From positions 171,743 through 235,742 of the forward strand of contig JAWLHY010000014.1 in assembly GCA_041690135.1 (NCBI GenBank): a stretch of DNA of 64,000 nt. Reading direction: 5' to 3'. Positions 1-27,359 of this stretch are shown one piece after another (the first letter of the stretch is position 1; every line of letters starts with the position of its first letter). The notes below the pieces were generated by a model that was not told the origin of the DNA, did not search any database, and saw only the letters and a program-made list of their open reading frames with translations. A program made the position numbers and the translations under genes. Source of the stretch: Armatimonadota bacterium. GTDB taxonomy: Bacteria > Armatimonadota > SYMT01.

Positions 1-3000
1 CTCACGGAGGGGATGACCTTCTACGCCACCGCGGGAGACGGCGTTTCGGACCGCGGTATCGTGGAAGTGGTCGATCCGGCGGCCGTGGTGGGCGCGAAGC
101 TCACGCTCACCTACCCCGCCTACATGGATAAGCCCGCCGCCACCCTGGCCGCGGACTCCGGCGGCGTGGCGGCTCCCGTGGGCACCGTGGTGCGCCTGGA
201 GTTGAAGGCGAACAAGCCTCTGGAGCAGGCGGAAGCCACCGTAATGGCGGAAAAGCCCGGTCCGTGGCAGGTGAAGGGCGACACGATCTCCGGGCAACTG
301 GTGGTCCGGAAAGACGGCCAGTACAGCCTGAAGCTCAAGGACCAGGACGGCTTCTACTCCCCCGAGATTCAGACCTTCCCGATCAAGGCGATCCAGGACC
401 AGACCCCGGAAGTCCACCTCCGCGACCCCGCCGGGGACCTCGAGGTGGTGCCGGATGCCCGGGTCCGCCTCTCGATCCTGGCGAAGGACGATTACGGCAT
501 CGCGCAGGTTCGGGTGCCCTACGAGGCCTCCCGCCGCAAGCCGGCGACTCTTCCGGCCGGTTCCGGGGGGAAGAAGGACCGGGTCCTGGAGTTGGAAAGC
601 CTCTGGGAACTGGCCGCGATGAAGTTGAAGCCGGGCGACACCGTCACCTACCGGATTGAGGCGCTCGATCACGACAACATTTCCGGCCCCCACGTCGGCC
701 GGACACCCGAATACCACCTGCGCGTCATCGATCATGCGGAAGCCGAGCGCCGGTATGCGGAGCAGCGCGCCCAGATCCTTCTGGAGTTGAACGCGCTCAT
801 CCAGGAGCAGAAGGCAGCCCGCTCGGACGTGGAGAGCCAGCGCTCCGCCGCCCGCCCCAACGCGGATAAGATCGGCAGCGCCGAGGAGCGCCAGCGCGCG
901 ACCGCCGTCACCAGCTCCGACCTCGCCCGGCGCGTGGCCGAGCTGAACCGGATGGCCGAGACCAATAACCTGGCCGACAAGCCGGACCTCGAGTCGCAGC
1001 AGCAGGCGCAGAAGAGCCTGAACAATCTGTCGCAGCAGGCGATGCCCCAGGCCGCGAACCGGATCGGCAGCGCGCAGGCCCAGGCCGAGTCCAGCCCGCA
1101 GAACGCGAAGTCCGAGCTCGGTCAGGCCTCGCAGCAGCAGCAGGAGATCCTGAAGGAGCTGAGCCGGGTCGCCGAGATGATGAAGCCGGGCAGCGAGCTG
1201 AAGCGACTCGCGGAGCGGATCGATCGGCTGGCCCGCCAGCAGCGGAACCTCCAGGCCCAGACCGACAAGCTCCTGCCGGATACGCTGGGGAAGGGCATGG
1301 AAGAGCTGACACAGCAGCAGCGCAACCAGCTCCAGCAGCTTTCCCAACAGCAGCAGAACCTGCAGAAGGCTACCGCCCAGGCGGTGCAGGATCTGGAAAA
1401 GGCGGGGCAGTCGATGCAGAGCCGCAGCCCCGAGCAAGGGGATGCCGCCCGGCAGGCCGCGCAGGACCTCCAGCAGGGGCAGGTGACCGAGCAGCAGTCG
1501 CAGGCCGCGCAGAACGCGCAGCAGAACTCGCTGGGGCAGGCGCGCAGCCAGCAGGAGAACGCGGCCCAGCAGCTCGAGAACGCGGCCCAGCAGCTCCGGG
1601 ATGCGATGAACCCGAACGACCCGCGCAACGCGCAGCGGCTCCTCCGGCAGGCGATGAACCGCCTGAACCGGATGATGCAGCAGCAGGGCGAGGCGATCAA
1701 GCAGACACAGGGCGCGATGTCGCAGCAGCAGCGCCAGGAAGTCGCGGAGCAGCAAAAGGAACTCCAGAAGCAGGCTCAGGAGTTGGCTCGCCAGTTGGAG
1801 CGGCTGCAGCGCCGCACGCCTTCCGCCGGAAAGGCCTCGCAGCAGTTGCAGCAGGCCCAGCAGAAGCTGGGGCAATCCAGCCAGTCGCTCTCGCAGCAGA
1901 GCCAGAGCCAGCAGCAGAGCCAGGCCCAGCAGCAGCAGGCGCTCCAGCAGGAGAACCAGGCCCTCCAGGCCATGCAGCGGGCCATGCAGAGCCTTCAGCA
2001 GGCGATGGCCGAGGCCCAGAAGAACGACGACCCGTTTGCCGAGCTGCGGAAGAACCTGGACCGCTTGGCCACCCGGCAGAAGGCGATCCAGCAGGCCACC
2101 CGCCGGATCGACATGGACCAGAAGCGCCAGGGTTCGCGCCCGGAAGACCAGGAAGAACTGGAGCGCCTGTCGCAGCAGCAGGCCGAAGTCGAGTCCGAGG
2201 CTGCGAAGCTGGAGCCCGAGCTTCCTGGCGACGTGTTCAAGAACTTCTCACAGCAGGCCCGCGGCGCCATGTCCCGCTCGAAGAACGCCCTCGCCGAGGC
2301 GAACCCGAAGCAGAACCCGACCCAGCAGGCCCAGCAGCGCGCGCTCACCATCCTGGATCAGCTCAAAAAGGCGCTCGATCCCAATCCGGATGATAACAGC
2401 AAAGCAGAGGGTGGCGGCGGCGGTGGCGGCGGTGGCGGTGGGGGCGGCGGCTCCGACCCCGAACTGCAGAAGCGCCTGGCCGAGATCCGCCTCCTGCGGT
2501 ACCTCCAGCAGGGGATCCGCTCGCAGACCCAGGACGTGGACGACAACCGCAGCAGCGACGAGGAGCTGACCGACGCGCAGAAGAGCCAGATCGAGGAGAC
2601 CGCTCGCCAGCAGGCCTCGGCCAAGGCTCTCGCGGAGAAGGTGGCGAAGGCGCTCGCTCGCAACCGGCAACTGGCGGATAAGGTCAACTCCGCCAGCAAG
2701 TCGATGTCCGAAGCCCAGCGCGGCCTGGACCGGATGCAGACCGGTGAGCCGGTGCAGGAGCAGGAAAGCCAGGCGATCGTCCGCCTGACCGAAGCCCTCA
2801 AGCTGGCGCAGCGGCAGCAGCAGCAGCAACAGCAGCAGCAACAGCAGCAACAGCAGCAACAACAGCAACAGCAGCAGCAGGCCAACGGTCAGCAGCAGCA
2901 GCCTTCGGGCGGTCAGCAGCAGCAGGGGAATGCTCCGGCACTGCGGTCGGTGGCGCGGCGCGCCGGCCGGCAGGACGGTCCGCTGGCCGGCATCGGCGAC

Positions 3001-3132
3001 GGCCGTGGCTTCGGCAACCTCGATCCCCGCTCGCAGGATGCCCTCCGCCAGGGCTACAAGGAAAAGGTCCCCGCGGAATACCAGGACCTCATCCAGCGCT
3101 ACTACCGGGGCCTCTCCTCACAGGGACGTTAG
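1..3132 (+). CDS. Large Gln-rich coiled-coil protein (DUF4175-like), 5'-truncated by window edge
   Basis: 1039-aa ORF open from the window start. N-terminal Ig-like segments (DQTPEV, DDYGI, GDTVTYRIEALD), long Q/A/E coiled coil, poly-G and poly-Q tracts, and a C-terminal VPAEYQDLIQRYY motif typical of these MoxR-cluster proteins. Confidence 0.75.
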   Translation, partial: LTEGMTFYATAGDGVSDRGIVEVVDPAAVVGAKLTLTYPAYMDKPAATLAADSGGVAAPVGTVVRLELKANKPLEQAEATVMAEKPGPWQVKGDTISGQLVVRKDGQYSLKLKDQDGFYSPEIQTFPIKAIQDQTPEVHLRDPAGDLEVVPDARVRLSILAKDDYGIAQVRVPYEASRRKPATLPAGSGGKKDRVLELESLWELAAMKLKPGDTVTYRIEALDHDNISGPHVGRTPEYHLRVIDHAEAERRYAEQRAQILLELNALIQEQKAARSDVESQRSAARPNADKIGSAEERQRATAVTSSDLARRVAELNRMAETNNLADKPDLESQQQAQKSLNNLSQQAMPQAANRIGSAQAQAESSPQNAKSELGQASQQQQEILKELSRVAEMMKPGSELKRLAERIDRLARQQRNLQAQTDKLLPDTLGKGMEELTQQQRNQLQQLSQQQQNLQKATAQAVQDLEKAGQSMQSRSPEQGDAARQAAQDLQQGQVTEQQSQAAQNAQQNSLGQARSQQENAAQQLENAAQQLRDAMNPNDPRNAQRLLRQAMNRLNRMMQQQGEAIKQTQGAMSQQQRQEVAEQQKELQKQAQELARQLERLQRRTPSAGKASQQLQQAQQKLGQSSQSLSQQSQSQQQSQAQQQQALQQENQALQAMQRAMQSLQQAMAEAQKNDDPFAELRKNLDRLATRQKAIQQATRRIDMDQKRQGSRPEDQEELERLSQQQAEVESEAAKLEPELPGDVFKNFSQQARGAMSRSKNALAEANPKQNPTQQAQQRALTILDQLKKALDPNPDDNSKAEGGGGGGGGGGGGGGSDPELQKRLAEIRLLRYLQQGIRSQTQDVDDNRSSDEELTDAQKSQIEETARQQASAKALAEKVAKALARNRQLADKVNSASKSMSEAQRGLDRMQTGEPVQEQESQAIVRLTEALKLAQRQQQQQQQQQQQQQQQQQQQQQQANGQQQQPSGGQQQQGNAPALRSVARRAGRQDGPLAGIGDGRGFGNLDPRSQDALRQGYKEKVPAEYQDLIQRYYRGLSSQGR
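2815..2925 (+). repeat. CAG/CAA trinucleotide repeat encoding poly-Gln
   Basis: About 22 consecutive Gln codons, followed by two QQQQ blocks. Confidence 0.95.
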
Positions 3133-3282
3133 TGGGAGTAAGTTTACTCGTATGAAAGTAGGGAAGTGTGGGGGAACCTGTCCCGCGCTTCGCTGTGCCT
3201 CGCCCTCCCTACTCCACCACTCCCACACCCCCATCCTTCACCAATCCTAAACCCCTTTAGCCACTGACTGGATAACTAGCCG

Positions 3283-4407
3283 ATGCGCCGTAAGCCGAAG
3301 GTAATGATGAACTTGATGGTCGCCGTTCTTGGCGTTCTTGGCGTCCTGGCGGTAACGATCAGCCCTCCCCAGGCCTCGGCTCAGAAAAAGAAGGCCTCCG
3401 CCCGCAAGTCCGGGACCCTCTCCGGCACCGGGTTCACCCTGCAGGAACGCAACGGCGGTCTGGAGCAGGAAGCACGGGAATACCTTGGCAACGCCAAGAC
3501 CGAAGCGGCGGTGAAGAAGGCGCTGAAGTACCTCGCCACCACGCAGAACGCGGACGGCTCCTGGGGCGGCGGGGGATACAGCTCGGACGTGGGGATCGTG
3601 GGGCTCTGCTCCCTGGCGTTCATGTCCGCCGGGCACCAGCCGGACCGCGGCCCTTATGGCCAGGTATTGCGTCGCGCGGCCGATTACATCGCCAAGCACA
3701 GCCAGCGGACGGGTCTCATCTATAACCCGCAGGCTGCCGCCGGTCCCCCCATGTACGGGCATGGTTTCGCTACCCTGGCCCTGGCCGAGCTGTACGGCAT
3801 GACCCGCCGGGTTGATCTCCGCGACAAGCTGGAGGCGGCGGTGGCGCTCATCATCCGCACGCAGAACTCGGAAGGCGGTTGGCGGTACCAGCCGCGGGTG
3901 GCCGATGCCGACATCAGCGTCGTGATCTGCCAGATCATGGCTCTCCGCGCCGCCGCGAACGCCGGGGTGCCGGTACCCCGCGACACCACCGCGCGCGCCA
4001 TCGACTACGTGAAGCGCTGCTCCAACAACTCAGACGGCGGCTTCAGCTACATGGCGGGCCAGACCGGCTCCGGCCAGGCACGGACCGGCGCGGGCGTCCT
4101 CTCGCTCATCGTGATGGGCGAGCGCGGCTCGACGGAGTGCAAGCGCGGCCTCGAGTACCTGATGAACAAGCCGCCGGGGACCCGGGACGGCCACGTGTTC
4201 TACGCCCTCTACTATTGCACCCAGGCCATGTACCAGGCCGGCGGCAAATACTGGACCTACTGGTACCCCAAGGCGGCGGACTACCTGCTCTCTACGCAGC
4301 GCTCCGATGGCTCCTGGTACGACGGCCCCGGCTATGCCTACGCCACCGCCATGGGCACCCTGGCCCTCCAGGTCCCGGCCGCCCTCCTGCCGATTTATCA
4401 GAAGTAA
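3283..4407 (+). CDS. Prenyltransferase/squalene oxidase repeat (alpha/alpha barrel) protein, secreted
   Basis: Repeated QW-type motifs QNADGSW, QNSEGGW, SDGGFSY, QRSDGSW. MYGHGFATLALAE motif. N-terminal signal-like segment. Confidence 0.85.
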   Translation: MRRKPKVMMNLMVAVLGVLGVLAVTISPPQASAQKKKASARKSGTLSGTGFTLQERNGGLEQEAREYLGNAKTEAAVKKALKYLATTQNADGSWGGGGYSSDVGIVGLCSLAFMSAGHQPDRGPYGQVLRRAADYIAKHSQRTGLIYNPQAAAGPPMYGHGFATLALAELYGMTRRVDLRDKLEAAVALIIRTQNSEGGWRYQPRVADADISVVICQIMALRAAANAGVPVPRDTTARAIDYVKRCSNNSDGGFSYMAGQTGSGQARTGAGVLSLIVMGERGSTECKRGLEYLMNKPPGTRDGHVFYALYYCTQAMYQAGGKYWTYWYPKAADYLLSTQRSDGSWYDGPGYAYATAMGTLALQVPAALLPIYQK

Positions 4408-18373: not shown

Positions 18374-18471
18374 TCCCCCGCTATACTGGGGATAAGCTCG
18401 TAACCTGAAACGGCGGCCGCCGTCGGGGCGTCCTACTGAGAGTGCGTCACTTCCGAAGGAGCCTTGGATTC

Positions 18472-20655
18472 ATGCCCGTACCGAAGAAACACCGGTCTCA
18501 CTCGATCCCCCGGTCCCAGCCGGGTCTCCCTGCCCCGACTTCGGAAACGGGAGGCGCCACCCGCCTCCAGGCTCCCGACATCGCCTCGCCGCGACTCCGC
18601 GCGCTCCTTGCCGCCACCCTGGCCCTGGGAATGCTTGGGGCCGCCGGTATTGGCTCCCGGCCCACGAGCGCCCAGACCCGCGCCGAATTTGTCCCCACCT
18701 TCTCCACCAACACGCGGGTCAAGCAGCAGTTGGAGCGCCTCGACCGCCTCGCGGCGCAGAAGATGTGGGATGAGTGGCTGGCCGGCTATCAGCAACTCGT
18801 GGACGACCCCCGCGACCTGGTGATCGAGCGCGACGGCGAATTCCTGGACGGCGTTCGGTTCCGGGCGCACCAGATGCTGGCGGCCCAGCCCGCCGCCGTA
18901 CGCCAGAAATACCGCACCCTATTCGATCCCACCGCGCGCAAGCTCTACGACGAAGCGGTGACGAAGAACGATGGCGCGGCGATGCGGGACGTTTACAGCC
19001 GTTATCGCTTCAGCACTTACGGCCCGCGCGCTCTCCTCTGGATCGCCAACCGGTCCCTGGACGAGGGGCGCCCGGAACTGGCGCGGGTCGCCTACAGCCG
19101 CCTTTCCCGGGAGCCGGGCGTTACGGTGCAGACTCTGCTGCGCTACGCCCTGGCGGCGGATGCGGCGGGCAAGCCGGCGGAAGCGACCGCCGTTCTCGAC
19201 CGTATTCGGAAAGAGTTCGCCGCCCAGCCGACGCGGCTGGCCGGAAAGGACCTGACGGGCGGCGCCGCCGCGGATGCCGTGGCCAAAGCGCTCCGGAAAC
19301 CCGGAGCCGGTGCGAGCTCGGTCTGGCCCTCCTTCGCTGGCGCCGGCGGAGACCGCCGGATGGCCGGGCAGGTCACCGGCGCGCAAAAGAAGCTGTGGGA
19401 GTTTGCGCAGTCCACCAAGCCCGAGGGCAACTCGGGGAACTACCGCGGGCGGGTGCTCGGGTTCAGCAGCCTCGGGAGCGGCCGTTTCCAGTTTTTGAGC
19501 TTCCCCGTGGTGGGTGGAGACCGCGTCTGGATCCAGGGTCCGCAGAATCTCACGGCTGTCAACCTGGACACCGGCGAGCCGGCCTGGGACCAGCAGGATT
19601 TCAGCATCAGCCGGGACGAGAGCGGGCTTCAGAACACCGATCCGCGCCTGGGCGGCATCTACTACCGATCGGGTCGCGCGGTCCAAACGGCTCCCACGCT
19701 GGACGGGCATGTGCTCCTGGGCCGTTTCCCGCTCAGCTCGTCGGATCGCGACACCAATCGCTGGCCGTCAGACTTCTCGATCGGCGCCTTCGATGCGCGC
19801 TCCGGTACACCGCTCTGGCAGCGGGTCGCGGGCGGGGAGCCCCGGGGCAGCTTCTATAACCTGCCTACTCTTTCGGCCAACATGGTCCTGGGCGGCGTGA
19901 CCACCTTCAAGGGCGGCATCACGGAGTACAACGCGGTCGCCCTGGACGCCGCCACCGGCGAGGAGTTGTGGTCTACCTACCTCGGCGCCGGCAGCGATCC
20001 CCTCGGCATCGTCGACGGCTCCCCGGCTGCCGTCAAAGACGGCGTCGTGTGGATCGAAAGCTCGCTTTACACGCTCAACATGCTCGACCTGATCACCGGG
20101 GAACTCCGGCAGATCTACCGCTACGATCCCGGCAAGCGGACCACCTTCCGGGGCGGGTTCGACAGCAGCCCGATGGTGCCGCACGAGCCCGTGAGCCTGA
20201 TCGCGGCGGCGCAGGGTCCGGTCGTCTTCTGCCCGCGCTGGGGAACCGACGTCGTTGCACTGGACTCCGCGACTGGCCGGCTGCTCTGGTCCTCGCCTAA
20301 GGCGCCCGGCCAGTCTTCCATGGGCTCCCTGTTCGCGGTGGACGACAAGCTCGCCTACGTTTGCGGCGACCATCTCCAGGCCCTCAACCTGGAAGACGGC
20401 GCCCGCGAGTGGCATTGGGAGCCGGAGCAAGCCTCCAGCCGCCACATGGGCTTCGCCGCCCTCGCGGGAGACCGGATCTACTTCCCCGTGGAAGGGAAGA
20501 TCCACGTCCGCGCCGCCGCCGACGGCCGCGCCCTGGAGACCCTCGACCTGGTGGACGCCCTCACCGACCAGCCCTACTTCACCTCCCTGGTCGTGCACGG
20601 CAACAAGCTCATCGTCTCCACCAAGGACAAGGTAGTCGCCTTCGGCCCGAAGTGA
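18472..20655 (+). CDS. PQQ-like beta-propeller repeat protein with N-terminal TPR-like region
   Basis: Repeats AVNLDTGEPAW, AFDARSGTPLW, ALDAATGEELW, ALDSATGRLLW. Signal peptide. RBS AAGGAG before ATG 18472. Confidence 0.85.
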   Translation: MPVPKKHRSHSIPRSQPGLPAPTSETGGATRLQAPDIASPRLRALLAATLALGMLGAAGIGSRPTSAQTRAEFVPTFSTNTRVKQQLERLDRLAAQKMWDEWLAGYQQLVDDPRDLVIERDGEFLDGVRFRAHQMLAAQPAAVRQKYRTLFDPTARKLYDEAVTKNDGAAMRDVYSRYRFSTYGPRALLWIANRSLDEGRPELARVAYSRLSREPGVTVQTLLRYALAADAAGKPAEATAVLDRIRKEFAAQPTRLAGKDLTGGAAADAVAKALRKPGAGASSVWPSFAGAGGDRRMAGQVTGAQKKLWEFAQSTKPEGNSGNYRGRVLGFSSLGSGRFQFLSFPVVGGDRVWIQGPQNLTAVNLDTGEPAWDQQDFSISRDESGLQNTDPRLGGIYYRSGRAVQTAPTLDGHVLLGRFPLSSSDRDTNRWPSDFSIGAFDARSGTPLWQRVAGGEPRGSFYNLPTLSANMVLGGVTTFKGGITEYNAVALDAATGEELWSTYLGAGSDPLGIVDGSPAAVKDGVVWIESSLYTLNMLDLITGELRQIYRYDPGKRTTFRGGFDSSPMVPHEPVSLIAAAQGPVVFCPRWGTDVVALDSATGRLLWSSPKAPGQSSMGSLFAVDDKLAYVCGDHLQALNLEDGAREWHWEPEQASSRHMGFAALAGDRIYFPVEGKIHVRAAADGRALETLDLVDALTDQPYFTSLVVHGNKLIVSTKDKVVAFGPK

Positions 20656-20730
20656 AGTTGCCGTTCCCCGCGGGTTGCCCGTAACATAGGAATCAGAACA
20701 CTCCACTGGATGCAGGAAGAGGAGAGTGCG

Positions 20731-20886
20731 ATGCAGACCCTGGAAAAGCCCCGCCCGGAAGCCGCGCAGGCTCAAAACGTTGAAGAGCGCCCGCTGGACC
20801 ATATCCCCGACAAGGTTTCCGATCTGCTGGCGCAGCTCGATGTCAAGAACCTGGCCGAAGCGAACCCCCACGTCAGCGGGGAATAA
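20731..20886 (+). CDS. Small Pup/UBact-like ubiquitin-like modifier peptide (51 aa, C-terminal SGE), not in the ORF track
   Basis: GAGGAG RBS 6 nt before the ATG. MQTLEKPRPEAAQAQNVEERPLDHIPDKVSDLLAQLDVKNLAEANPHVSGE*. Acidic, disordered N-half, DLL helix, G-E C-terminus. Lies directly upstream of a PafA-like gene. Confidence 0.8.
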   Translation: MQTLEKPRPEAAQAQNVEERPLDHIPDKVSDLLAQLDVKNLAEANPHVSGE

Positions 20887-20919
20887 TCCTGTCACCACCG
20901 GCAGCACTGCCGTGAAACC

Positions 20920-20953
20920 GAGCGGGAGGGGGACGCGCGTCCCCCTCCCGCTC
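20920..20953. promoter_or_regulatory. Perfect 34-bp palindrome between modifier and ligase genes
   Basis: gagcgggagggggacgc|gcgtccccctcccgctc, ending 11 nt upstream of ATG 20965, with no U-tract. Confidence 0.7.
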
Positions 20954-20964
20954 GTTGCAACTGT

Positions 20965-22464
20965 ATGACCGCTGAGCCAATCTGCAGCCTGGAGCTGGAG
21001 TTTTTCGTCCTCGGCCGTACCTGTCCCGAAGTCCTCCGCTTCCTCCGCGACCGGAATCCCATCGTCACCTATTCCGGCAAGGGGAGTGGGTTCTGGTTGG
21101 AACTGCCGGGGTGCGGAGTGCCGGCCTGGTTCAAGATCTCCGGGGACGGTCCCTACTGTTTCGAAGACCTCGTGTTCGAAGCGGCCCTGCCGGAGACCAA
21201 CGCCCCCACCGCGGCGTACCTGGTGCAGCACTCGCTCCTCCCTTGGTTGGCGCGGCTGGAACGGGAGATGGGGGAGAACGGCGCCCCGGTCCGCTTCATG
21301 ACGGGCCCGGACCTCCACGGGCATCGCTCCGCCTTCCAGGTGAACCTCGTCCTCGATCGAGTCGAGGATATCCGCGCCTACTATGCGGCCCTGGCGCCCC
21401 TGGTGCTCACGCTTAGCTGCGTGACGGGCCCTGGTGGGCCCGTTCCTGGTGAGGGATACGTGCTGGCGCCGCGCTTGAACACCCACTGCCGGCCCGGCCA
21501 TTACCTGGGAAGCGACGCCTCGCTCCGCCATGCGCCCGTGGCCTATCCCCGCTGGCGCGACTATGGCGCGGGGCACCGGGCCCATTTCAGCCTGGAGTAC
21601 TCCCGTCTACCGGGCGCGATGCTGCTGGTCGCGGGTGTCCTTTCGCTGGCTACCCGGGCGTATGAAATTGCCCCCAAGCAGTTCGACCTTCGCTTTCTCG
21701 ACGAGCCGATCGCGGCGGCACGGGGGCTCAACCGTCTGGGTGAGCCTCGCGTGCTGGTGGAAGCCGGCATGGAGGAGCACCGCTGGTCCGGCCTCGAGCT
21801 CCAGGAGGCCTTTCTCGAAAGGATCATCGAGCCCGTCCTTTCCGGGGTCGCCGCGGCGCCGGAGTGGACGGAGCCGTTCCTGGAGTACTGGCGCGCGGCG
21901 ATCGCGGCCCAGCGGGAGGGCAGGCCTTGCCCGGCGTCTGACTTCAGCACCAAGCACCCATACCTGGAAACCCTCGTCTCTCGGGCGGGCCTGCAGTTCG
22001 GCTCGCGGGAGTGCCAGGCCGCCTACGCCCTCTGCGCCTCTCTGCTGCACGCCCAGGTCGATCTGGATACCTTCTTCAGCCGTCCGGCGTGCACGCTGCC
22101 GCTCGATGACCGGAGAGCCTCTCTACGGCGTCACCTGGAGACGGTCCCGCCGGAACGCCTCCGGGAGATCTATCTCGGCGGCCTGCGGGAAGCCCTGCTC
22201 TTTGAGGTGGCCTGGCAACGGATCGGGCCGGGAAGCGCCGCCGATCAGTTGACGCCCGATCCGGCCGAAGCCCTTCTCCTGGGGAGCCGCCCGTATCTCG
22301 CGCCCCGCGCCGCCGCACGCGCGGAGCTCTTCCAGGCCCATCGCGAGGACCTCTGGATGGCCGCCGATTGGGACCGCATCGAAACCCTCGACAGTTTCCT
22401 CTACTGTCGCGATCCACGCGACGCACATTTCTCCGACGATCCGGCCGCGGGTCCGGTATACTGA
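20965..22464 (+). CDS. Divergent PafA/Dop-family (Pup ligase-like, GS/GCS fold) protein
   Basis: Collinear motif matches to PafA: ICSLELEF~IMGIETEF, FEAALPE~PEYATAE, DLHGHRSAFQVNL~DSAGNSYGCHENY, PLVLTLSCVTGPG~PFLVTRQLICGAG, YVLAPR~YCLSQR, HRAHF~RRLHV, LDEPIAAARGLN~LDNPIRAIREVS, SGLELQ~SALDIQ, PRAAARAE~TRARLRGE, ADW...CRDP~VDW...CKDP. Confidence 0.8.
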   Translation: MTAEPICSLELEFFVLGRTCPEVLRFLRDRNPIVTYSGKGSGFWLELPGCGVPAWFKISGDGPYCFEDLVFEAALPETNAPTAAYLVQHSLLPWLARLEREMGENGAPVRFMTGPDLHGHRSAFQVNLVLDRVEDIRAYYAALAPLVLTLSCVTGPGGPVPGEGYVLAPRLNTHCRPGHYLGSDASLRHAPVAYPRWRDYGAGHRAHFSLEYSRLPGAMLLVAGVLSLATRAYEIAPKQFDLRFLDEPIAAARGLNRLGEPRVLVEAGMEEHRWSGLELQEAFLERIIEPVLSGVAAAPEWTEPFLEYWRAAIAAQREGRPCPASDFSTKHPYLETLVSRAGLQFGSRECQAAYALCASLLHAQVDLDTFFSRPACTLPLDDRRASLRRHLETVPPERLREIYLGGLREALLFEVAWQRIGPGSAADQLTPDPAEALLLGSRPYLAPRAAARAELFQAHREDLWMAADWDRIETLDSFLYCRDPRDAHFSDDPAAGPVY

Positions 22465-22469
22465 GGTCT

Positions 22470-22760
22470 GTGAACTACCTGTTAATCGAAATCATCCACC
22501 GGGGCACGGAGGTCATCAGCCTCGTCGTGATCGCGTCGATCATCCTCTCGATGATTGCCCAGGTCACCCACGCCCGCTGGATCCACCATCCCGCCGTCCG
22601 CTTCGTCGTCGCCGCCGGTGATGCCATCTGCGCGCCTTTCCGGGAACTGATGCAGCGCCTCGGCCTGCCCACTGCGCCGCTCGATTTCTCGCCGATGGTC
22701 GCCCTGTTTGCCATTCGCATGATCAGCGGCTTTCTGATCCGCATCCTGATCGCGAGCTAA
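22470..22760 (+). CDS. yggT: YggT family membrane protein
   Basis: GTG start 5 nt after the previous stop. HPAVRFV..ICAPFR...LDFSPMVALF. Confidence 0.85.
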   Translation: MNYLLIEIIHRGTEVISLVVIASIILSMIAQVTHARWIHHPAVRFVVAAGDAICAPFRELMQRLGLPTAPLDFSPMVALFAIRMISGFLIRILIAS

Positions 22761-23269: not shown

Positions 23270-25864
23270 ATGGAATTCCGGCCCAGGCGAACGGCCCACC
23301 GGGTTGCGGTGGGAATGGCGGTCTTACTCTCCGGCGCGTCGGTCGCGCTGGAGTTGGGCATGGGGATCTGCGCCCAGACCTTTTTCGATCCGCTTCCGAC
23401 CCCTCTCTACACCGCCGCTTATCTTTTCCTGGCCGCTATGCTGGCGCTCAACGAGTCGGTGCTGGCGCAGGCGGACCGGCGGATCGGCGAGCGCGTTTGG
23501 GAACAGCGCCAGTCGCTCCCGCTTCCACCCGAGAAGCGCACGCCCCTGGAACTGGCCCGCATCGGCACCGGAGCCGCGCTCGCCGTGGCGGCCGTGTATG
23601 CGGTCATGTTCCTCCCGATCATGCCGATCTCGGCCATCGGGGTCCTGGTATGGGGGATGGGGCTCTGTGGCTTAAGCCCCTTCATCAACCTCTCCCTGCT
23701 CCTGGCGCAGTCCCGCGCTCTGGGCCACCGCTGGCGCCTCCTGGAACTGGGCACCCCGCTCCGGCCCCAGGCTGCCGCTACCTGTGCCGCGCTCGCTGTT
23801 ATCTGCGTGCTGGTGGGGCGGCCGCTCCTCGTGGGTTATCACATCGAGCAGGCGCTGGCGAACCCCGGTCGCCGCGAGCAGGCGGTCCAGCGCCTCCGGT
23901 GGATGGCGGCCGAGTCGGAGGTGCTGCGTCTCTGCTACGAGACCCGCTCGCCTCTACTCGAAAGTGCCGGCCGCTCTCTCTGGACCGCCGGGGTCGATCG
24001 GGAGAACCTGCCGGATGTCAACGACGAGGCCCGCAAGCTTTACTACTTGCTCACCGGCAAGCCCTTTGAGACCGCGGATGCCTCGCGCCTGACCCGCACG
24101 CGGATGTGGGCCCGCTTCGACGACCCGGTGGTAAACCAGCAGGGTGGGGAACTGGTCGGGCGAGCGGTGAAGGGGCTGAGCCTGAGCTCTTCTCGCCTGG
24201 ATGGGGTGGTGGACCCGCGTACGGAAACCGCCTACAGCGAGTGGACGCTGGTGTTCCGGAACGCCACCTCCGTTCCCCAGGAAGCCCGCGCCGAGATCCT
24301 TCTACCAGAGGGAGGCGTGGTAGATAGGGTCTCCCTCTGGATCAGTGGGGAGGAGCGCCCCGCCGCCTTCGGGCCGCGCGACGTGGTCCGGCAGGCCTAC
24401 CAGGAAGTAGCCGTGGTGCAGCAGCGCGACCCGCTTCTGGTCACGGCAAAGGATGCCGGCCACGTCCTCGCCCAGTGCTTCCCGGTCCCCGCCTCCGGGG
24501 AGATGAAGATCCGCCTCGGCATGACCGCGCCGCTGGTCTGGGCCGATCCCCGGAACCCTCGTCTCACCTACGCGCTGCCGTCGTTCCAACATGTCAACTT
24601 CACGCTTCCGGCGGACGCGACGCACCAGGTCTGGCTGGAGGGGCACTGGAGGGAGCGTTACGGGCGATTGGCACGGGAGGCCGGTGCGGAGTGGCAATTG
24701 CTCACTGGACCGGCGCCCGCGGGCCAACCGGCAGACGAGCGGACCCACACGGCACGGATGAAGCTCCCGGCGGACCAACTCTTCCAGCGCCACTCGCTGG
24801 CGGTGGCGGGAGGCGCCCCTCCGGCTCCGGGAGACGCGTTGGGAAACGGTCTCGTACGCCGGACCTCTCCGTTCCCTCGCGCTACCCGGCCGGTGGACCT
24901 GCTCGTCCTGCTCAGCCCCACGCTCGACATGCGGAACGCCGTGACCCCGGCCCACCGCGAGGCGCTTCGCCGGGCGCTGGCGGAACTTCCCTCCGGCTCC
25001 CACGTCCGGTTTGTGGACGTGCGGGAAGCGGTCCTGCCGGGCAGCCGCCGGGGCACCTCCTGGCTCGACGTTTCCCAGGTGGAGGAGGCCGATCGCTGGT
25101 GGGAGTCCCGGGACTACCATGGGGGCGCCGAACCGGCCCGTGCTTTGGAATGGGCGTGGGATGAAGCCCTGGGGCGGACCCATCCCACCGCCGTGCTCTG
25201 GCTGCACGGCCCCACCCCGGAAGAATTCAAAGACGCGGAGCAGCTCGTCGCCAATTACCGCCGCCGCCCCGAAGGCCCGGTCCTGGTAGGCGTTCGCTTC
25301 CGGCCCGGTCCGGACGCCCTGATGCGGGAGCTGGCCGGAAACCCGCGGATCTTCGCCCGCGGTGACGGCGATCAGCCCGAGAGCCTGGCCGCCGCGGTCC
25401 GCCTCGCCGCCGCGGCTCTCGACACGTCGGAGGGGCTGAAAGGCTATGCGGAAGGCGTTACCACCGTGCCGCTGGGTGGACGCGAGCCGGCCCTCAACGG
25501 GACCTACGTCGTCGGTGGAGCCCGCAGTGGAGCCGTTCCCGTGGCCGGGGCCCCCGGTCGCGTGGCGCGCCTGGCCGCCAACTCGCATGTGCTGGCGCCG
25601 TGGTATGCCGGTCGGCGTGAGGGACGTGAGATCCAGGCCGCGCAGACGCTCGCCATCTCCCGGCGGCTGGTCACGCCCATGTCCGGGGCGGTGGTGCTGG
25701 AGACCCAGGAGCAGTACCGGCGGCACAACTTGAGCGATGCTGCGCCGCAGTCCACCATTCCCAGCGTGCCGGAGCCGGGCACCGTTGCCCTGCTGCTCGT
25801 GGGCACCGTGGTAGCGCTGGCCGCGGCCTATCGGGGGCGAAGGAGATCCGCAGGTGCAGGCTAA
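23270..25864 (+). CDS. Multi-TM + VIT domain protein with C-terminal PEP-CTERM sorting signal
   Basis: N-terminal TM helices. VIT motifs AYSEWTLVFRN, EARAEILLPEGGVV..VSLWISGEERPAAF, RDPLLV, QCFPVP. Also LVTPMSGAVVLE, then SVPEPGT + TM + RGRRR. Confidence 0.85.
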   Translation: MEFRPRRTAHRVAVGMAVLLSGASVALELGMGICAQTFFDPLPTPLYTAAYLFLAAMLALNESVLAQADRRIGERVWEQRQSLPLPPEKRTPLELARIGTGAALAVAAVYAVMFLPIMPISAIGVLVWGMGLCGLSPFINLSLLLAQSRALGHRWRLLELGTPLRPQAAATCAALAVICVLVGRPLLVGYHIEQALANPGRREQAVQRLRWMAAESEVLRLCYETRSPLLESAGRSLWTAGVDRENLPDVNDEARKLYYLLTGKPFETADASRLTRTRMWARFDDPVVNQQGGELVGRAVKGLSLSSSRLDGVVDPRTETAYSEWTLVFRNATSVPQEARAEILLPEGGVVDRVSLWISGEERPAAFGPRDVVRQAYQEVAVVQQRDPLLVTAKDAGHVLAQCFPVPASGEMKIRLGMTAPLVWADPRNPRLTYALPSFQHVNFTLPADATHQVWLEGHWRERYGRLAREAGAEWQLLTGPAPAGQPADERTHTARMKLPADQLFQRHSLAVAGGAPPAPGDALGNGLVRRTSPFPRATRPVDLLVLLSPTLDMRNAVTPAHREALRRALAELPSGSHVRFVDVREAVLPGSRRGTSWLDVSQVEEADRWWESRDYHGGAEPARALEWAWDEALGRTHPTAVLWLHGPTPEEFKDAEQLVANYRRRPEGPVLVGVRFRPGPDALMRELAGNPRIFARGDGDQPESLAAAVRLAAAALDTSEGLKGYAEGVTTVPLGGREPALNGTYVVGGARSGAVPVAGAPGRVARLAANSHVLAPWYAGRREGREIQAAQTLAISRRLVTPMSGAVVLETQEQYRRHNLSDAAPQSTIPSVPEPGTVALLLVGTVVALAAAYRGRRRSAGAG

Positions 25865-27359
25865 AGCCTCGGGCCTCTCCACGATGGCCGCGCCGATGCC
25901 GGCGCTCCGGGCGCGCCTCGCCGTGGTACCGCTCGCGGGCTGGGTCGCCCTCGCCCTGTGGCCGGTGTGGGCCTATCTCCACCGGGCCTACACCAGCCCC
26001 GGCGCGGATCCGTCTCCCGCGCTGGTGCTGCTCGGCGCCGTCGGTTGGGCCGCCTGGGTGGCCCGTTCGACCGCACGGGAGGAGAAGGAAGGGGCTCCCG
26101 CCCACGCGGTAGGTTCGGAGTGGGCTCGCACCCTCCTGGTGCTTGCGCTCTACGCGGCAGCCTATCCCTGGGCGCCGCCCCTGGCGCGGGCTCTGCTGGG
26201 GTTGGCCGCCCTGGGCCTCTCGCTGCGGGCCCTCCCCGGCGTGCCCGCGAGCGGAGGGTGGGGGCTGGCGGCGCTGGTCGTGCTGGCGGCCCCGGCGGTC
26301 GACACGCTCAGCTTCTTCCTGGGCGGCCCCATGCGCTCCGCCGCGGCCGAGGTGGCGGTGTGGGCCCTCGGCGCCCTGGGCAACTCCGCGCGCGCCGAGG
26401 CCGGAGACGCGGCCTTCTGGGTCAACGGCCGCCTCTTCAGCGTCGATGCGCCCTGTTCCGGCGTCAACGGGCTCTGGACCGGCCTCGTCCTCGCGGCGGC
26501 GGTGGCGACGTGGCGGCGCCTCTCCTTCTGGTCCACGGCCCTGCTGCTCTCAGCATCGGTGCTGTTGTGCGTTCCCGCCAACGGTTGGCGCGCGGCCACC
26601 CTCGTCTACCTGGAGGTGCTCGCCCCGCAGTTCGGCCCCCTCGCTGGCGACCTCAGCCACTCCCTGGTGGGCCTCCTCATCTTCGCCCTCACCACCGGCG
26701 TCCTCGTGGGGTTGTCCCGTCCCTTGTCCCCCGGAGCAAGTTGTGATCGTGATCCTAAGCCACTCTCTTCTCCATCTCCGTCATCCCACGCTCCCAATCG
26801 TAATCCAAATCCTTATCTTTATCGTTACCCTTATCGTCATCTCTATCCTTATCCACTCATACTGGCCGCTTTCGTCCCTCTCCTGCCCCGTTCCGCTCCG
26901 GCGACCCCCGCGGCCCAGGCGTTCCCTGGCTGGCCGCGAGAGTGGATGGGCCGCCCCCTGCGACCCCTCCCAGCCTCTGAGATGGACCGCCGCTGGGCCG
27001 CGCTGACTCCCGGACCGCTCACACGCTTTGCTCTGCCCGACGGCTCCGAGTTGCTGCTGCGCTGGGTGGACCGGCCCACGCGCGCCCTCCACTCGCCGGA
27101 AGATTGCTACCGTGGCCTGGGCGCCACGCTCACTCCCCGGCCACCAGTGCGGGCTGCCGCACCCGGCACTTCGGGTCCGGTCTTGTGGCGGAGGTTTCGC
27201 GTCTCCCGGCAGGGACGGAGCTGGGAAGTTCGCTCTCTGATCCGCACCGAAAGCGGCGCCACCTACTCCGACCCGGCCTGGTGGTGGTGGCGCGTGGCGG
27301 GCCCCGGGGCGCAGGATCGAGGCCCCTGGTGGGCCATCACGCTCCAGACTCCGCTATGA
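25854..27359 (+). CDS. Exosortase (XrtQ/XrtO-like) with C-terminal EpsI-like extension
   Basis: Catalytic triad motifs VDAPCSG, NGWR, SHSLVG. C-terminal domain with LHSPEDCYRGLG. Overlaps the VIT-PEP-CTERM gene. Confidence 0.85.
   Translation: MQAKASGLSTMAAPMPALRARLAVVPLAGWVALALWPVWAYLHRAYTSPGADPSPALVLLGAVGWAAWVARSTAREEKEGAPAHAVGSEWARTLLVLALYAAAYPWAPPLARALLGLAALGLSLRALPGVPASGGWGLAALVVLAAPAVDTLSFFLGGPMRSAAAEVAVWALGALGNSARAEAGDAAFWVNGRLFSVDAPCSGVNGLWTGLVLAAAVATWRRLSFWSTALLLSASVLLCVPANGWRAATLVYLEVLAPQFGPLAGDLSHSLVGLLIFALTTGVLVGLSRPLSPGASCDRDPKPLSSPSPSSHAPNRNPNPYLYRYPYRHLYPYPLILAAFVPLLPRSAPATPAAQAFPGWPREWMGRPLRPLPASEMDRRWAALTPGPLTRFALPDGSELLLRWVDRPTRALHSPEDCYRGLGATLTPRPPVRAAAPGTSGPVLWRRFRVSRQGRSWEVRSLIRTESGATYSDPAWWWWRVAGPGAQDRGPWWAITLQTPL

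Follow-up and report, generated by a model that had tools for sequence, protein, structure and literature searches.

Introduction

To our knowledge, pupylation is known from one enzyme family and one kind of tag (Pup/UBact), and it is almost always tied to the proteasome. When bound to its enzyme, Pup forms two helices followed by an extended tail of six to seven residues that runs into the active site. Here we describe a pair of neighbouring genes from an Armatimonadota bacterium (assembly GCA_041690135.1) that code for a 51-amino-acid (aa) peptide ending in Gly-Glu and for a 499-aa protein distantly related to PafA and Dop. The pair lies in a stretch of 64,000 nucleotides (nt) of contig JAWLHY010000014.1 (positions 171,743 to 235,742 of the forward strand), and this whole stretch is called the window below. 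Plain positions are those of the window, whereas those preceded by C14 are those of the contig.

According to Iyer, Burroughs and Aravind (2008, PMC2588565), Pup proteins are 50-90 aa long, and next to each PafA gene lies a Pup gene that codes for a product ending in G[EQ]. PafA proteins are marked there by the motif GhExE, by [HQ]x[NH] on strand 4, by [QH]x4D on strand 6 and by two arginines (PMC2588565). The same text already knows Pup/ligase pairs that are not linked to the proteasome, in Rhodopirellula and Plesiocystis; their ligases were found by ordinary PafA profiles, have four transmembrane segments after core strand 4 and are accompanied by a linked membrane-protein gene (PMC2588565).

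The pairs of Rhodopirellula and Plesiocystis resemble the one reported here in that a Pup-like gene stands beside a single PafA-family ligase, without adjacent proteasome genes and outside the Actinobacteria. The new family differs from them in lacking the membrane insert (the model has a short soluble helix at residues 136-149), in escaping the PafA models and in having no third gene common to its loci. A full-text literature search, covering main texts, found no description of this clade, although members might stand in someone's alignment. The account we lean towards is that the two genes form a Pup-like conjugation pair that would work by the PafA mechanism, a second and rare tagging pair beside the UBact-proteasome system of the same genome.

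Results

A short gene with a Gly-Glu ending precedes the gene of a PafA/Dop-like protein

The elements of the pair are the following.

20719..20724, plus strand: ribosome-binding site (RBS) GAGGAG, 6 nt ahead of the peptide ATG, as read in the sequence.
20731..20886, plus strand: gene of the 51-aa Pup-like peptide, with an acidic N-terminal half, a predicted helical part (DLLAQLD..LAEAN) and the C-terminal tail PHVSGE.
20965..22464, plus strand: gene of the 499-aa protein, predicted ligase of a deep and rare PafA/Dop clade.

The peptide (MQTLEK...DLLAQLDVKNLAEANPHVSGE, C-terminus HVSGE) had been pointed out in an earlier sequence-only reading of the window as a small open reading frame (ORF) with a clean RBS ahead of the larger one. 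This observation stands, as these elements are read in the sequence and the GC content by codon position of the small ORF (0.77/0.33/0.75) is the coding pattern of this genome of 65-70% G+C. If translation began instead at another in-frame ATG, at 20710, the product would have 58 aa; the peptide recorded from a relative, P0014, also has 51 aa. This P0014 was the single protein returned by a word search with the window peptide, to which it is 96% identical (2 substitutions) and with which it shares the C-terminal ending (Gly-Glu). Its source contig measures 7243 bases, the same size as the contig of P0002, a ligase 83% identical to the window protein. At the rate of the ligase about 8.7 changes would be expected over the 51 residues, so the two changes found indicate that the peptide is under tighter constraint than the enzyme.

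With 51 residues and the ending SGE, the window peptide falls within the length and the ending given for Pup (50-90 residues, C-terminal G[EQ]). In common with Pup and UBact, the peptides described here have a C-terminal Gly-Glu, a length (50-51 aa) of the same order, a variable N-terminal half and a conserved C-terminal half that is predicted to bind in helical form, with some six residues behind it as a tail. The S-G-E of the window peptide is also found in the UBact of the same genome (...QRSGE), but without the Arg that precedes it there. As a further difference from Pup and UBact, the window gene is not beside proteasome, ARC or Dop genes.

The peptide had been said to fit neither the Pup nor the UBact consensus, and the family models agree: neither the Pup model (PF05639) nor the UBact model (NF033388) matched it in searches of Pfam and NCBIfam at E<=1, nor did any carrier-protein family. 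The UBact model was controlled with the genome's own UBact, which scored 79.5 bits. Two matches were obtained when the whole genome was searched with it at E<=10: the canonical UBact, with 78.6 bits, and a chance match that is not the 51-aa ORF. The only Pfam match of the peptide at E<=1, NepR (E 0.052), lies far under its cut-off and was set aside as chance. A likeness of 34% between the peptide and UBact in a MAFFT alignment was dismissed as evidence of homology because BLASTP gives no alignment of the two. A PADLOC scan of both peptide and ligase gave nothing usable.

The 499-aa protein is a distant homologue of PafA and Dop

A word search among 5.8 billion clusters returned two other proteins related to the 499-aa protein, and an exhaustive phmmer search of 1.84 billion proteins gave 11 family representatives, the window protein included, 10 of them at E<=1e-10. 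All ten family clusters that were looked up are singletons from metagenomes. With the single sequence as query, phmmer against the PDB sequences returned a chance match only, and the matches in the ESM Atlas, with scores of 0.88, stayed under the 0.9 line and were kept as leads only. A search of the whole genome with PF03136 (E<=10) found two canonical genes, and not that of the 499-aa protein.

The profile of the 11 sequences (alignment A1), in contrast to the single sequence, matched Dop of M. smegmatis (9cku_G, E 7.6e-7) and PafA of C. glutamicum (4bjr_A, E 3.2e-5) in the PDB. The family was also compared by hhalign with 14 canonical PafA/Dop proteins, taken from loci that the family profile had found in genomes of the phylum, and matched them at 99.6% (E 3.3e-23) over 450 columns that run from the first strand to the C-terminal domain, with 18% identity. 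The motifs of the protein thus align in order with PafA/Dop, as the sequence-only reading had it, although not by way of a family model. In parallel, a structure was predicted by AlphaFold2 on A1, with a mean predicted local distance difference test score (pLDDT) of 87 and a predicted template modelling score (pTM) of 0.90, residues 63-66 being poor. When this model was compared with the PDB by Foldseek, the best nine matches were all Dop or PafA (E 5.2e-13 to 1.1e-8, TM ~0.64, TMq 0.53-0.65), so that the PafA fold proposed at the outset was recovered by structure as well as by profile; Dop takes ranks 1-6. On the PDB profile matches, the hhalign comparison and the fold matches taken together, the 499-aa protein is genuinely homologous to PafA/Dop, though very distantly, and lies outside the reach of the family models.

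The likeness covers the fold in its full length, C-terminal domain included, and it extends to several motifs: strand 1 carries GhExE, strand 4 carries Q-x-N and a later strand R-x-H, to which are added the Glu pair E72/E77 and two arginines. It also takes in the adjacent short gene with its Gly-Glu-ending product and a modelled peptide groove. The differences are an identity of about 18%, QVN in place of HEN, H-x3-E in place of H-x4-D, an extra segment at residues ~370-403 of the new family, an insecure catalytic Asp and the lack of a Dop-loop. For the last of these, the long insert that Dop-like proteins have before the NGARLY strand meets only gaps in the hhalign alignment with the family, and by our own identification this insert would be the Dop-loop.

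After Dop and PafA, the next fold matches were far weaker and consisted of YbdK (1tt4, E 4.9e-5; 1r8g, E 1.4e-4; TM 0.40-0.42) and glutamine synthetases. GCS2/YbdK and glutamine synthetase have the beta-sheet cradle in common with the family, and presumably also the acyl-phosphate chemistry with Mg-ATP, but a peptide partner is missing from them, as is the C-terminal domain of PafA/Dop. Their place directly behind PafA and Dop would suit an account in which the terminal Glu is ligated to a small amine or another non-protein acceptor (amino acid, polyamine or lipid head group, for example), the peptide being a carrier or scaffold comparable to LysW or else the precursor of a modified peptide. 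LysW, too, ends in Gly-Glu and is ligated via its terminal Glu. This account, which we regard as unlikely, draws further support from the superfamily, whose other members (glutamine synthetase, GCS2/YbdK and further carboxylate-amine ligases) produce amides of small molecules (PMC2588565). However, the closest relatives by both sequence and fold are the two protein-modifier enzymes, with C-terminal domain and peptide groove included, carrier-protein families give no match to the peptide at E<=1, and the window and the second locus that could be read (L025, see below) have no biosynthetic or tailoring gene in common. With respect to LysW itself, the partner here has a glutamine-synthetase fold and not an ATP-grasp fold, no genes of lysine or arginine pathways are adjacent, and there is no family match.

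Lysine is scarce in the predicted ligase, with 4 residues of 499 (0.8%) compared to a window median of 3.1%. These are K39, K57, K238 and K330, and the three that were compared across the family (K39, K57 and K330) are conserved. The low content could come from an avoidance of self-tagging; family members of low GC content have about 5% lysine, so lysine poverty is not a trait of the family.

Active-site residues, where mapped, are conserved in the family

Residues were mapped through the PDB profile match and hhalign onto the PafA motifs (PMC2588565) and onto the list given for Dop in PMC8599861 (catalytic D94, conserved R227 and, as Mg ligands, Glu8, Glu10, Tyr92, Glu99, His155 and His241), and were then counted in each family column, with the following results.

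E10: first Glu of GhExE, aligned to GIETE by hhalign; E in 8 and D in 1 of 9 sequences.
E12: second Glu of GhExE, aligned to GIETE by hhalign; 9/9.
E72: position of Dop Glu99; 10/10.
E77: the paired Glu; 10/10.
Q125: position of Dop His155, where the PafA motif permits Q; Q in 9 and H in 1 of 10.
N127: last position of [HQ]x[NH], occupied by N (6), S (3) or T (1).
R170: loop arginine; 10/10.
R196: position of Dop R227; R in 6, H in 3, K in 1.
R205: strand-5 arginine; 11/11.
H207: position of Dop His241; 11/11.
E211: H-x3-E where the canonical proteins have H-x4-D; 10/11.

GhExE, [HQ]x[NH], the two active-site arginines and the His of R-x-H are therefore all represented in the family, with the strict form of [HQ]x[NH] in 6 of 10 members, among them the window protein (Q125-V-N). 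A further residue, D61, is invariant (9/9) within the motif K-x-x-G-D-G. The active-site columns have been kept over internal branches of ~1.4 changes per site, which argues for a working enzyme and not for a decaying copy.

The family forms a deep and sporadic branch

A tree was built with FastTree from 26 rows, consisting of 8 full-length family members and 18 PF03136-type proteins, the latter from the loci that PF03136 had found in this genome and the family profile in the phylum; the fragments P0005, P0006, P0011 and P0012, the partial P0013 and canonical ORFs that contain X or fail two motif filters were left out. The 8 family members fall on one side of a branch with support of 100, at ~2.25 changes per site from the 18 canonical proteins. 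Neither the PafA-like nor the Dop-like group includes them, nor does a third group of PF03136-type proteins; the tree is unrooted because the genome has no GCS2 gene to serve as outgroup, and its long branches make any finer placement unsafe.

The third PF03136-type group (L004, L005, L006 and L010, from genomes G318, G082, G170 and G073) is characterised by a CHESY motif, a long acidic insert and C-terminal extensions, and its genes directly follow another PafA/Dop-like gene. It contains the best non-family scores to the family profile, with E ~1e-14 for L004-L006 and 5.5e-7 for L010.

When the 401 genomes of the phylum were searched with the family profile, the family was found in the genome of the window only and canonical PafA/Dop proteins in 20 others. 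Within the class, 1 of 8 genomes has the family, and its distribution is thus sporadic. The base composition profile had no island signature and no sign of recent import.

A second lineage has the same gene layout with its own peptide

A search for related loci brought up one from metagenomes and none from genomes, and P0009 as sole query gave none. The locus obtained, L025, a metagenome contig of 4491 bases and low G+C content, carries a ligase homologue of 38% identity in the same layout as the window: a strong RBS (AAAGGAGG), a 50-aa ORF (1539..1691, ending ..EAEGDGE), a spacer of 68 nt that contains a 14-bp hairpin, and the ligase ATG at 1760. Three relatives of the L025 peptide are recorded, and the ending GDGE is present in 3 of these 4 peptides (48-50 aa), in which the C-terminal halves are conserved and the N-terminal halves variable. 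The L025-type peptides (..EAEGDGE) are unlike Pup, UBact and also the window peptide, with which they cannot be aligned with confidence, the common features being length, acidity and the terminal Gly-Glu. An upstream peptide ending in G[E/Q] had been anticipated for the homologues and was found, as Gly-Glu, in both lineages where DNA or peptide could be read. No third gene is common to the window and L025 loci, the gene upstream in L025 being a divergent helix-turn-helix gene. The proposal of a minimal two-gene module fits because no further gene is shared by the two loci read.

The peptide is predicted to bind the ligase groove

The complex of ligase (with A1) and peptide was modelled with ESMFold2 in three runs, which gave values of the interface score ipSAE of 0.76, 0.65 and 0.76, compared to 0.00 for the best of 3 controls. 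The mark applied to this score was calibrated on known cases, being reached by 58 of 80 solved complexes and by 2 of 110 mismatched pairs. At least 72% of the contacts agree between runs, and the pLDDT of the partner is at least 59. Peptide residues 25-47 contact residues 14-16, 69-70 and 108-120 of the cradle of the ligase and residues 332-337, 361-369 and 408-429 of its helices, which include the conserved G-L-R-x-A-L-L-F-E stretch of the family. The model supports binding of the peptide in the groove of the ligase; as Pup-PafA and Pup-Dop complexes have been solved, part of the pass may be learnt likeness.

The genome also has a complete canonical UBact system

A separate canonical UBact/proteasome locus, a possibility raised by the sequence-only reading, was found at C14:153314-163984; it shares the contig of the pair (C14:192473-194206) and lies 28-39 kb upstream of it. 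In addition to an unnamed 185-aa gene, it contains the following genes.

C14:153314-154690: PafA-like protein.
C14:156249-156818: one of two proteasome subunits, this one by Pfam model.
C14:156934-157089: UBact, a 64-aa ORF ending QRSGE (NF033388, 79.5 bits).
C14:157268-158632: Dop-like protein.
C14:162518-163984: ARC-like ATPase, the nearest proteasome-system gene, 28.5 kb upstream of the pair.

The hits of PF03136, PF00227 and TIGR03689 in the genome all lie outside the 64-kb window, as was to be expected from the claim that it holds no Dop, ARC or 20S gene. The description of the pair as stand-alone, in consequence, holds for its local context but not for the contig, where the UBact, proteasome, ARC, PafA and Dop genes are complete. 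As the canonical system is on the same contig, the new pair is an extra system and not a replacement.

This neighbourhood bears on another account, in which the 499-aa protein would be a Dop-like hydrolase, or a peptide-binding regulator that does not ligate, and would strip the peptide, or UBact, off conjugates that the canonical PafA-like enzyme encoded 38 kb away had made, or in which the peptide merely regulates the enzyme. The canonical ligase of the genome could indeed supply such conjugates, Dop comes ahead of PafA in both the PDB profile search (7.6e-7 vs. 3.2e-5) and Foldseek (ranks 1-6), and the residues that separate ligases from hydrolases could not be mapped. Nevertheless, the gap between the Dop and PafA scores is small, the tree sets the family outside both groups, and the long Dop-specific insert has no counterpart. 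The peptide, moreover, is unlike UBact by both hidden Markov model and BLASTP, the distant low-GC lineage also has a peptide of its own, and a private peptide whose terminal Glu is encoded calls for a ligase, in a module that has one enzyme only. We therefore judge a hydrolase or regulator to be quite unlikely, and a Pup-like conjugation pair remains the account that we prefer.

A hairpin separates the two genes

The spacer of 78 nt between the peptide and ligase genes contains the following element.

20919..20954, plus strand: perfect G+C-rich stem of 16 bp with a 4-nt loop and no T-run after it.

The fold of 20884-20970 has a free energy of -48.2 kcal/mol (z -6.45), and none of 200 shuffled sequences was equally stable. 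The 16-bp stem sequence is found at one place only in the 9.1-Mb genome. The terminator scan, which demands a T-run, did not list the hairpin at 20919-20954, the promoter scan found no sigma-70-type site, and a search of 20400-21200 against Rfam gave only sub-threshold chance matches to the hairpin. This is probably an element that ends or attenuates the transcript and thereby sets the ratio of peptide to ligase, with more peptide than ligase transcript.

Contigs from three public runs cover the peptide gene only, at 20685-20946 (X1), 20715-20888 (X2) and 20721-20921 (X3), with 0-3 differences to the window; the one difference listed, A>G at 20859, is synonymous. Run X3 is a rhizosphere metatranscriptome, and a fourth run (X4) gave scattered pieces, the shares being small in all of them. 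Two of the three contigs end at or within the hairpin; the absence of cover over the ligase gene in X1-X3 does not count as evidence. As contigs are blind to transcript ends and DNA may be present in RNA libraries, the cover in these runs is only a weak hint of a short peptide transcript that stops at the hairpin.

Neighbouring genes in the window

Upstream of the pair lies a gene for a protein with TPR and beta-propeller parts, and downstream are those of a YGGT membrane protein, a VIT-domain PEP-CTERM protein and an exosortase.

18442-20655, plus strand: 737-aa protein, weak TPR followed by a PQQ/BamB-like beta-propeller; ends 75 nt before the peptide gene and is not found in L025.
22368-22760, plus strand: ORF of a YGGT-family membrane protein, listed with a TTG start that gives it an overlap of 97 nt with the end of the ligase gene.
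23270-25864, plus strand: 864-aa VIT-domain protein with PEP-CTERM tail; partial match to an XrtN-system VIT model (95 bits, cut-off 250).
25854-27359, plus strand: 501-aa exosortase, best partial match XrtQ, with an extra C-terminal part of ~210 aa; the VIT gene overlaps its start by 11 nt.

Given its overlap with the ligase gene, the true start of the YGGT ORF is probably further downstream. The VIT-domain protein and the exosortase are probably a dedicated sorting pair of an undescribed subtype.

Discussion

The above results suggest that the 51-aa peptide would be a modifier whose C-terminal half binds the groove of the ligase as helices and whose tail would bring the terminal Glu toward the active site. 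Within the PafA/Dop superfamily of carboxylate-amine ligases, the 499-aa enzyme would represent a third deep branch. In the mechanism that we propose, ATP would phosphorylate the terminal Glu at its gamma-carboxylate, and the activated peptide would then be handed to an amine, the likeliest being the epsilon-amino group of lysines in target proteins. As the last residue is encoded as Glu, no deamidase step would be needed. In this scheme we infer the use of ATP, the formation of the acyl phosphate, the ligation and the nature of the acceptor, which might be something other than protein.

Several results weigh against a Pup-like conjugation pair. In the first place, the 499-aa protein had no match at E<=1 in Pfam and NCBIfam, PF03136, TIGR03686 and TIGR03688 included, so that recognition of 20965..22464 by the Pup ligase model, as foreseen in the sequence-only reading, failed. 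The family members P0004, P0008 and P0009 had no match in Pfam either, and P0010 reached 10.4 bits for a cut-off of 25. In the active site, the canonical HEN is replaced by QVN, and the Glu beside His155 is Val or Phe in the family. No family column has a conserved counterpart of Dop Tyr92. Opposite the catalytic Asp of Dop (D94; D64 in the C. glutamicum PafA of 4BJR), hhalign sets the non-conserved F66 with low posterior. From the periodicity of the strand, the invariant D61 in K57-x-S59-x-D61, whose residues are spaced i, i+2, i+4 like those of R-x-Y-x-D, may be the equivalent of the catalytic Asp in the latter motif, a placement that is insecure.

With regard to the peptide, BLASTP gave no alignment of the window peptide with the genome's own UBact. 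The complex model, which had been expected to show the C-terminal Glu in the cradle of the enzyme, passes its controls (0.76 vs. 0.00), but the last four residues (VSGE) are not confidently in place. The context of the peptide has been read in 2 lineages only, the window type and the L025 type, and the L025 type has irregularities. In P0017, from a contig of 629 bases, Gln takes the place of the stop behind ..GDGE and the reading frame continues into the spacer (..GDGEQGLTEEGVMVF), so that its ending is not Gly-Glu; the cause may be an error of sequencing or decay of this copy, or the peptide may have a Gly-Glu-Gln-... form that would need processing. The ligase gene of L025 lies in two frames, 1760..2833 and 2900..4099, whereas the related P0006 reads through the region of the break without interruption, and the ~290 extra C-terminal residues on the second piece have no match in Pfam or PADLOC. 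The frame break may stem from faulty assembly, mark a pseudogene or reflect a true fusion.

The frame break of L025 and the read-through of the P0017 peptide, together with the extreme rarity of the family (11 representatives, all in singleton clusters, and 1 of 8 genomes of the class), could also be explained if the small ORF or its pairing with the ligase were fortuitous, or if the module were an inactive relic. This we hold to be very unlikely, as the peptide is more strongly conserved than the ligase, and the Gly-Glu ending, the length and the order of peptide, hairpin and ligase recur at very different base composition. In addition, the catalytic columns are kept over branches of ~1.4 changes per site, the GC by codon position is of coding type, and the complex model passes its controls.

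A working conjugation pair can be extended to a broader proposal, which we regard as possible but doubtful: that the family is an ancient third branch of PafA/Dop, in which each clade has its private Gly-Glu peptide, and which would constitute a self-contained, non-proteasomal tagging system, parallel and orthogonal to UBact.

For annotation, the pair exposes a gap, as current family models recognise neither of its genes. PafA and Pup are in use for proximity labelling (PUP-IT), and a ligase and tag that do not cross-react with them would provide a second, orthogonal labelling channel. The divergence of PafA and Dop could also be studied with the family as outgroup, a good one having been lacking to Hecht et al. 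(PMC7947786). If the proposal is true, the cell that harbours the window would have two protein tags that are chemically alike and mutually blind, and the pair would be a test case for non-degradative tagging in bacteria. A deep sister clade that has retained the catalytic core but has unrelated Gly-Glu peptides would then mean that the design of a ligase with a disordered tag is older and more diverse than the Pup-proteasome system.

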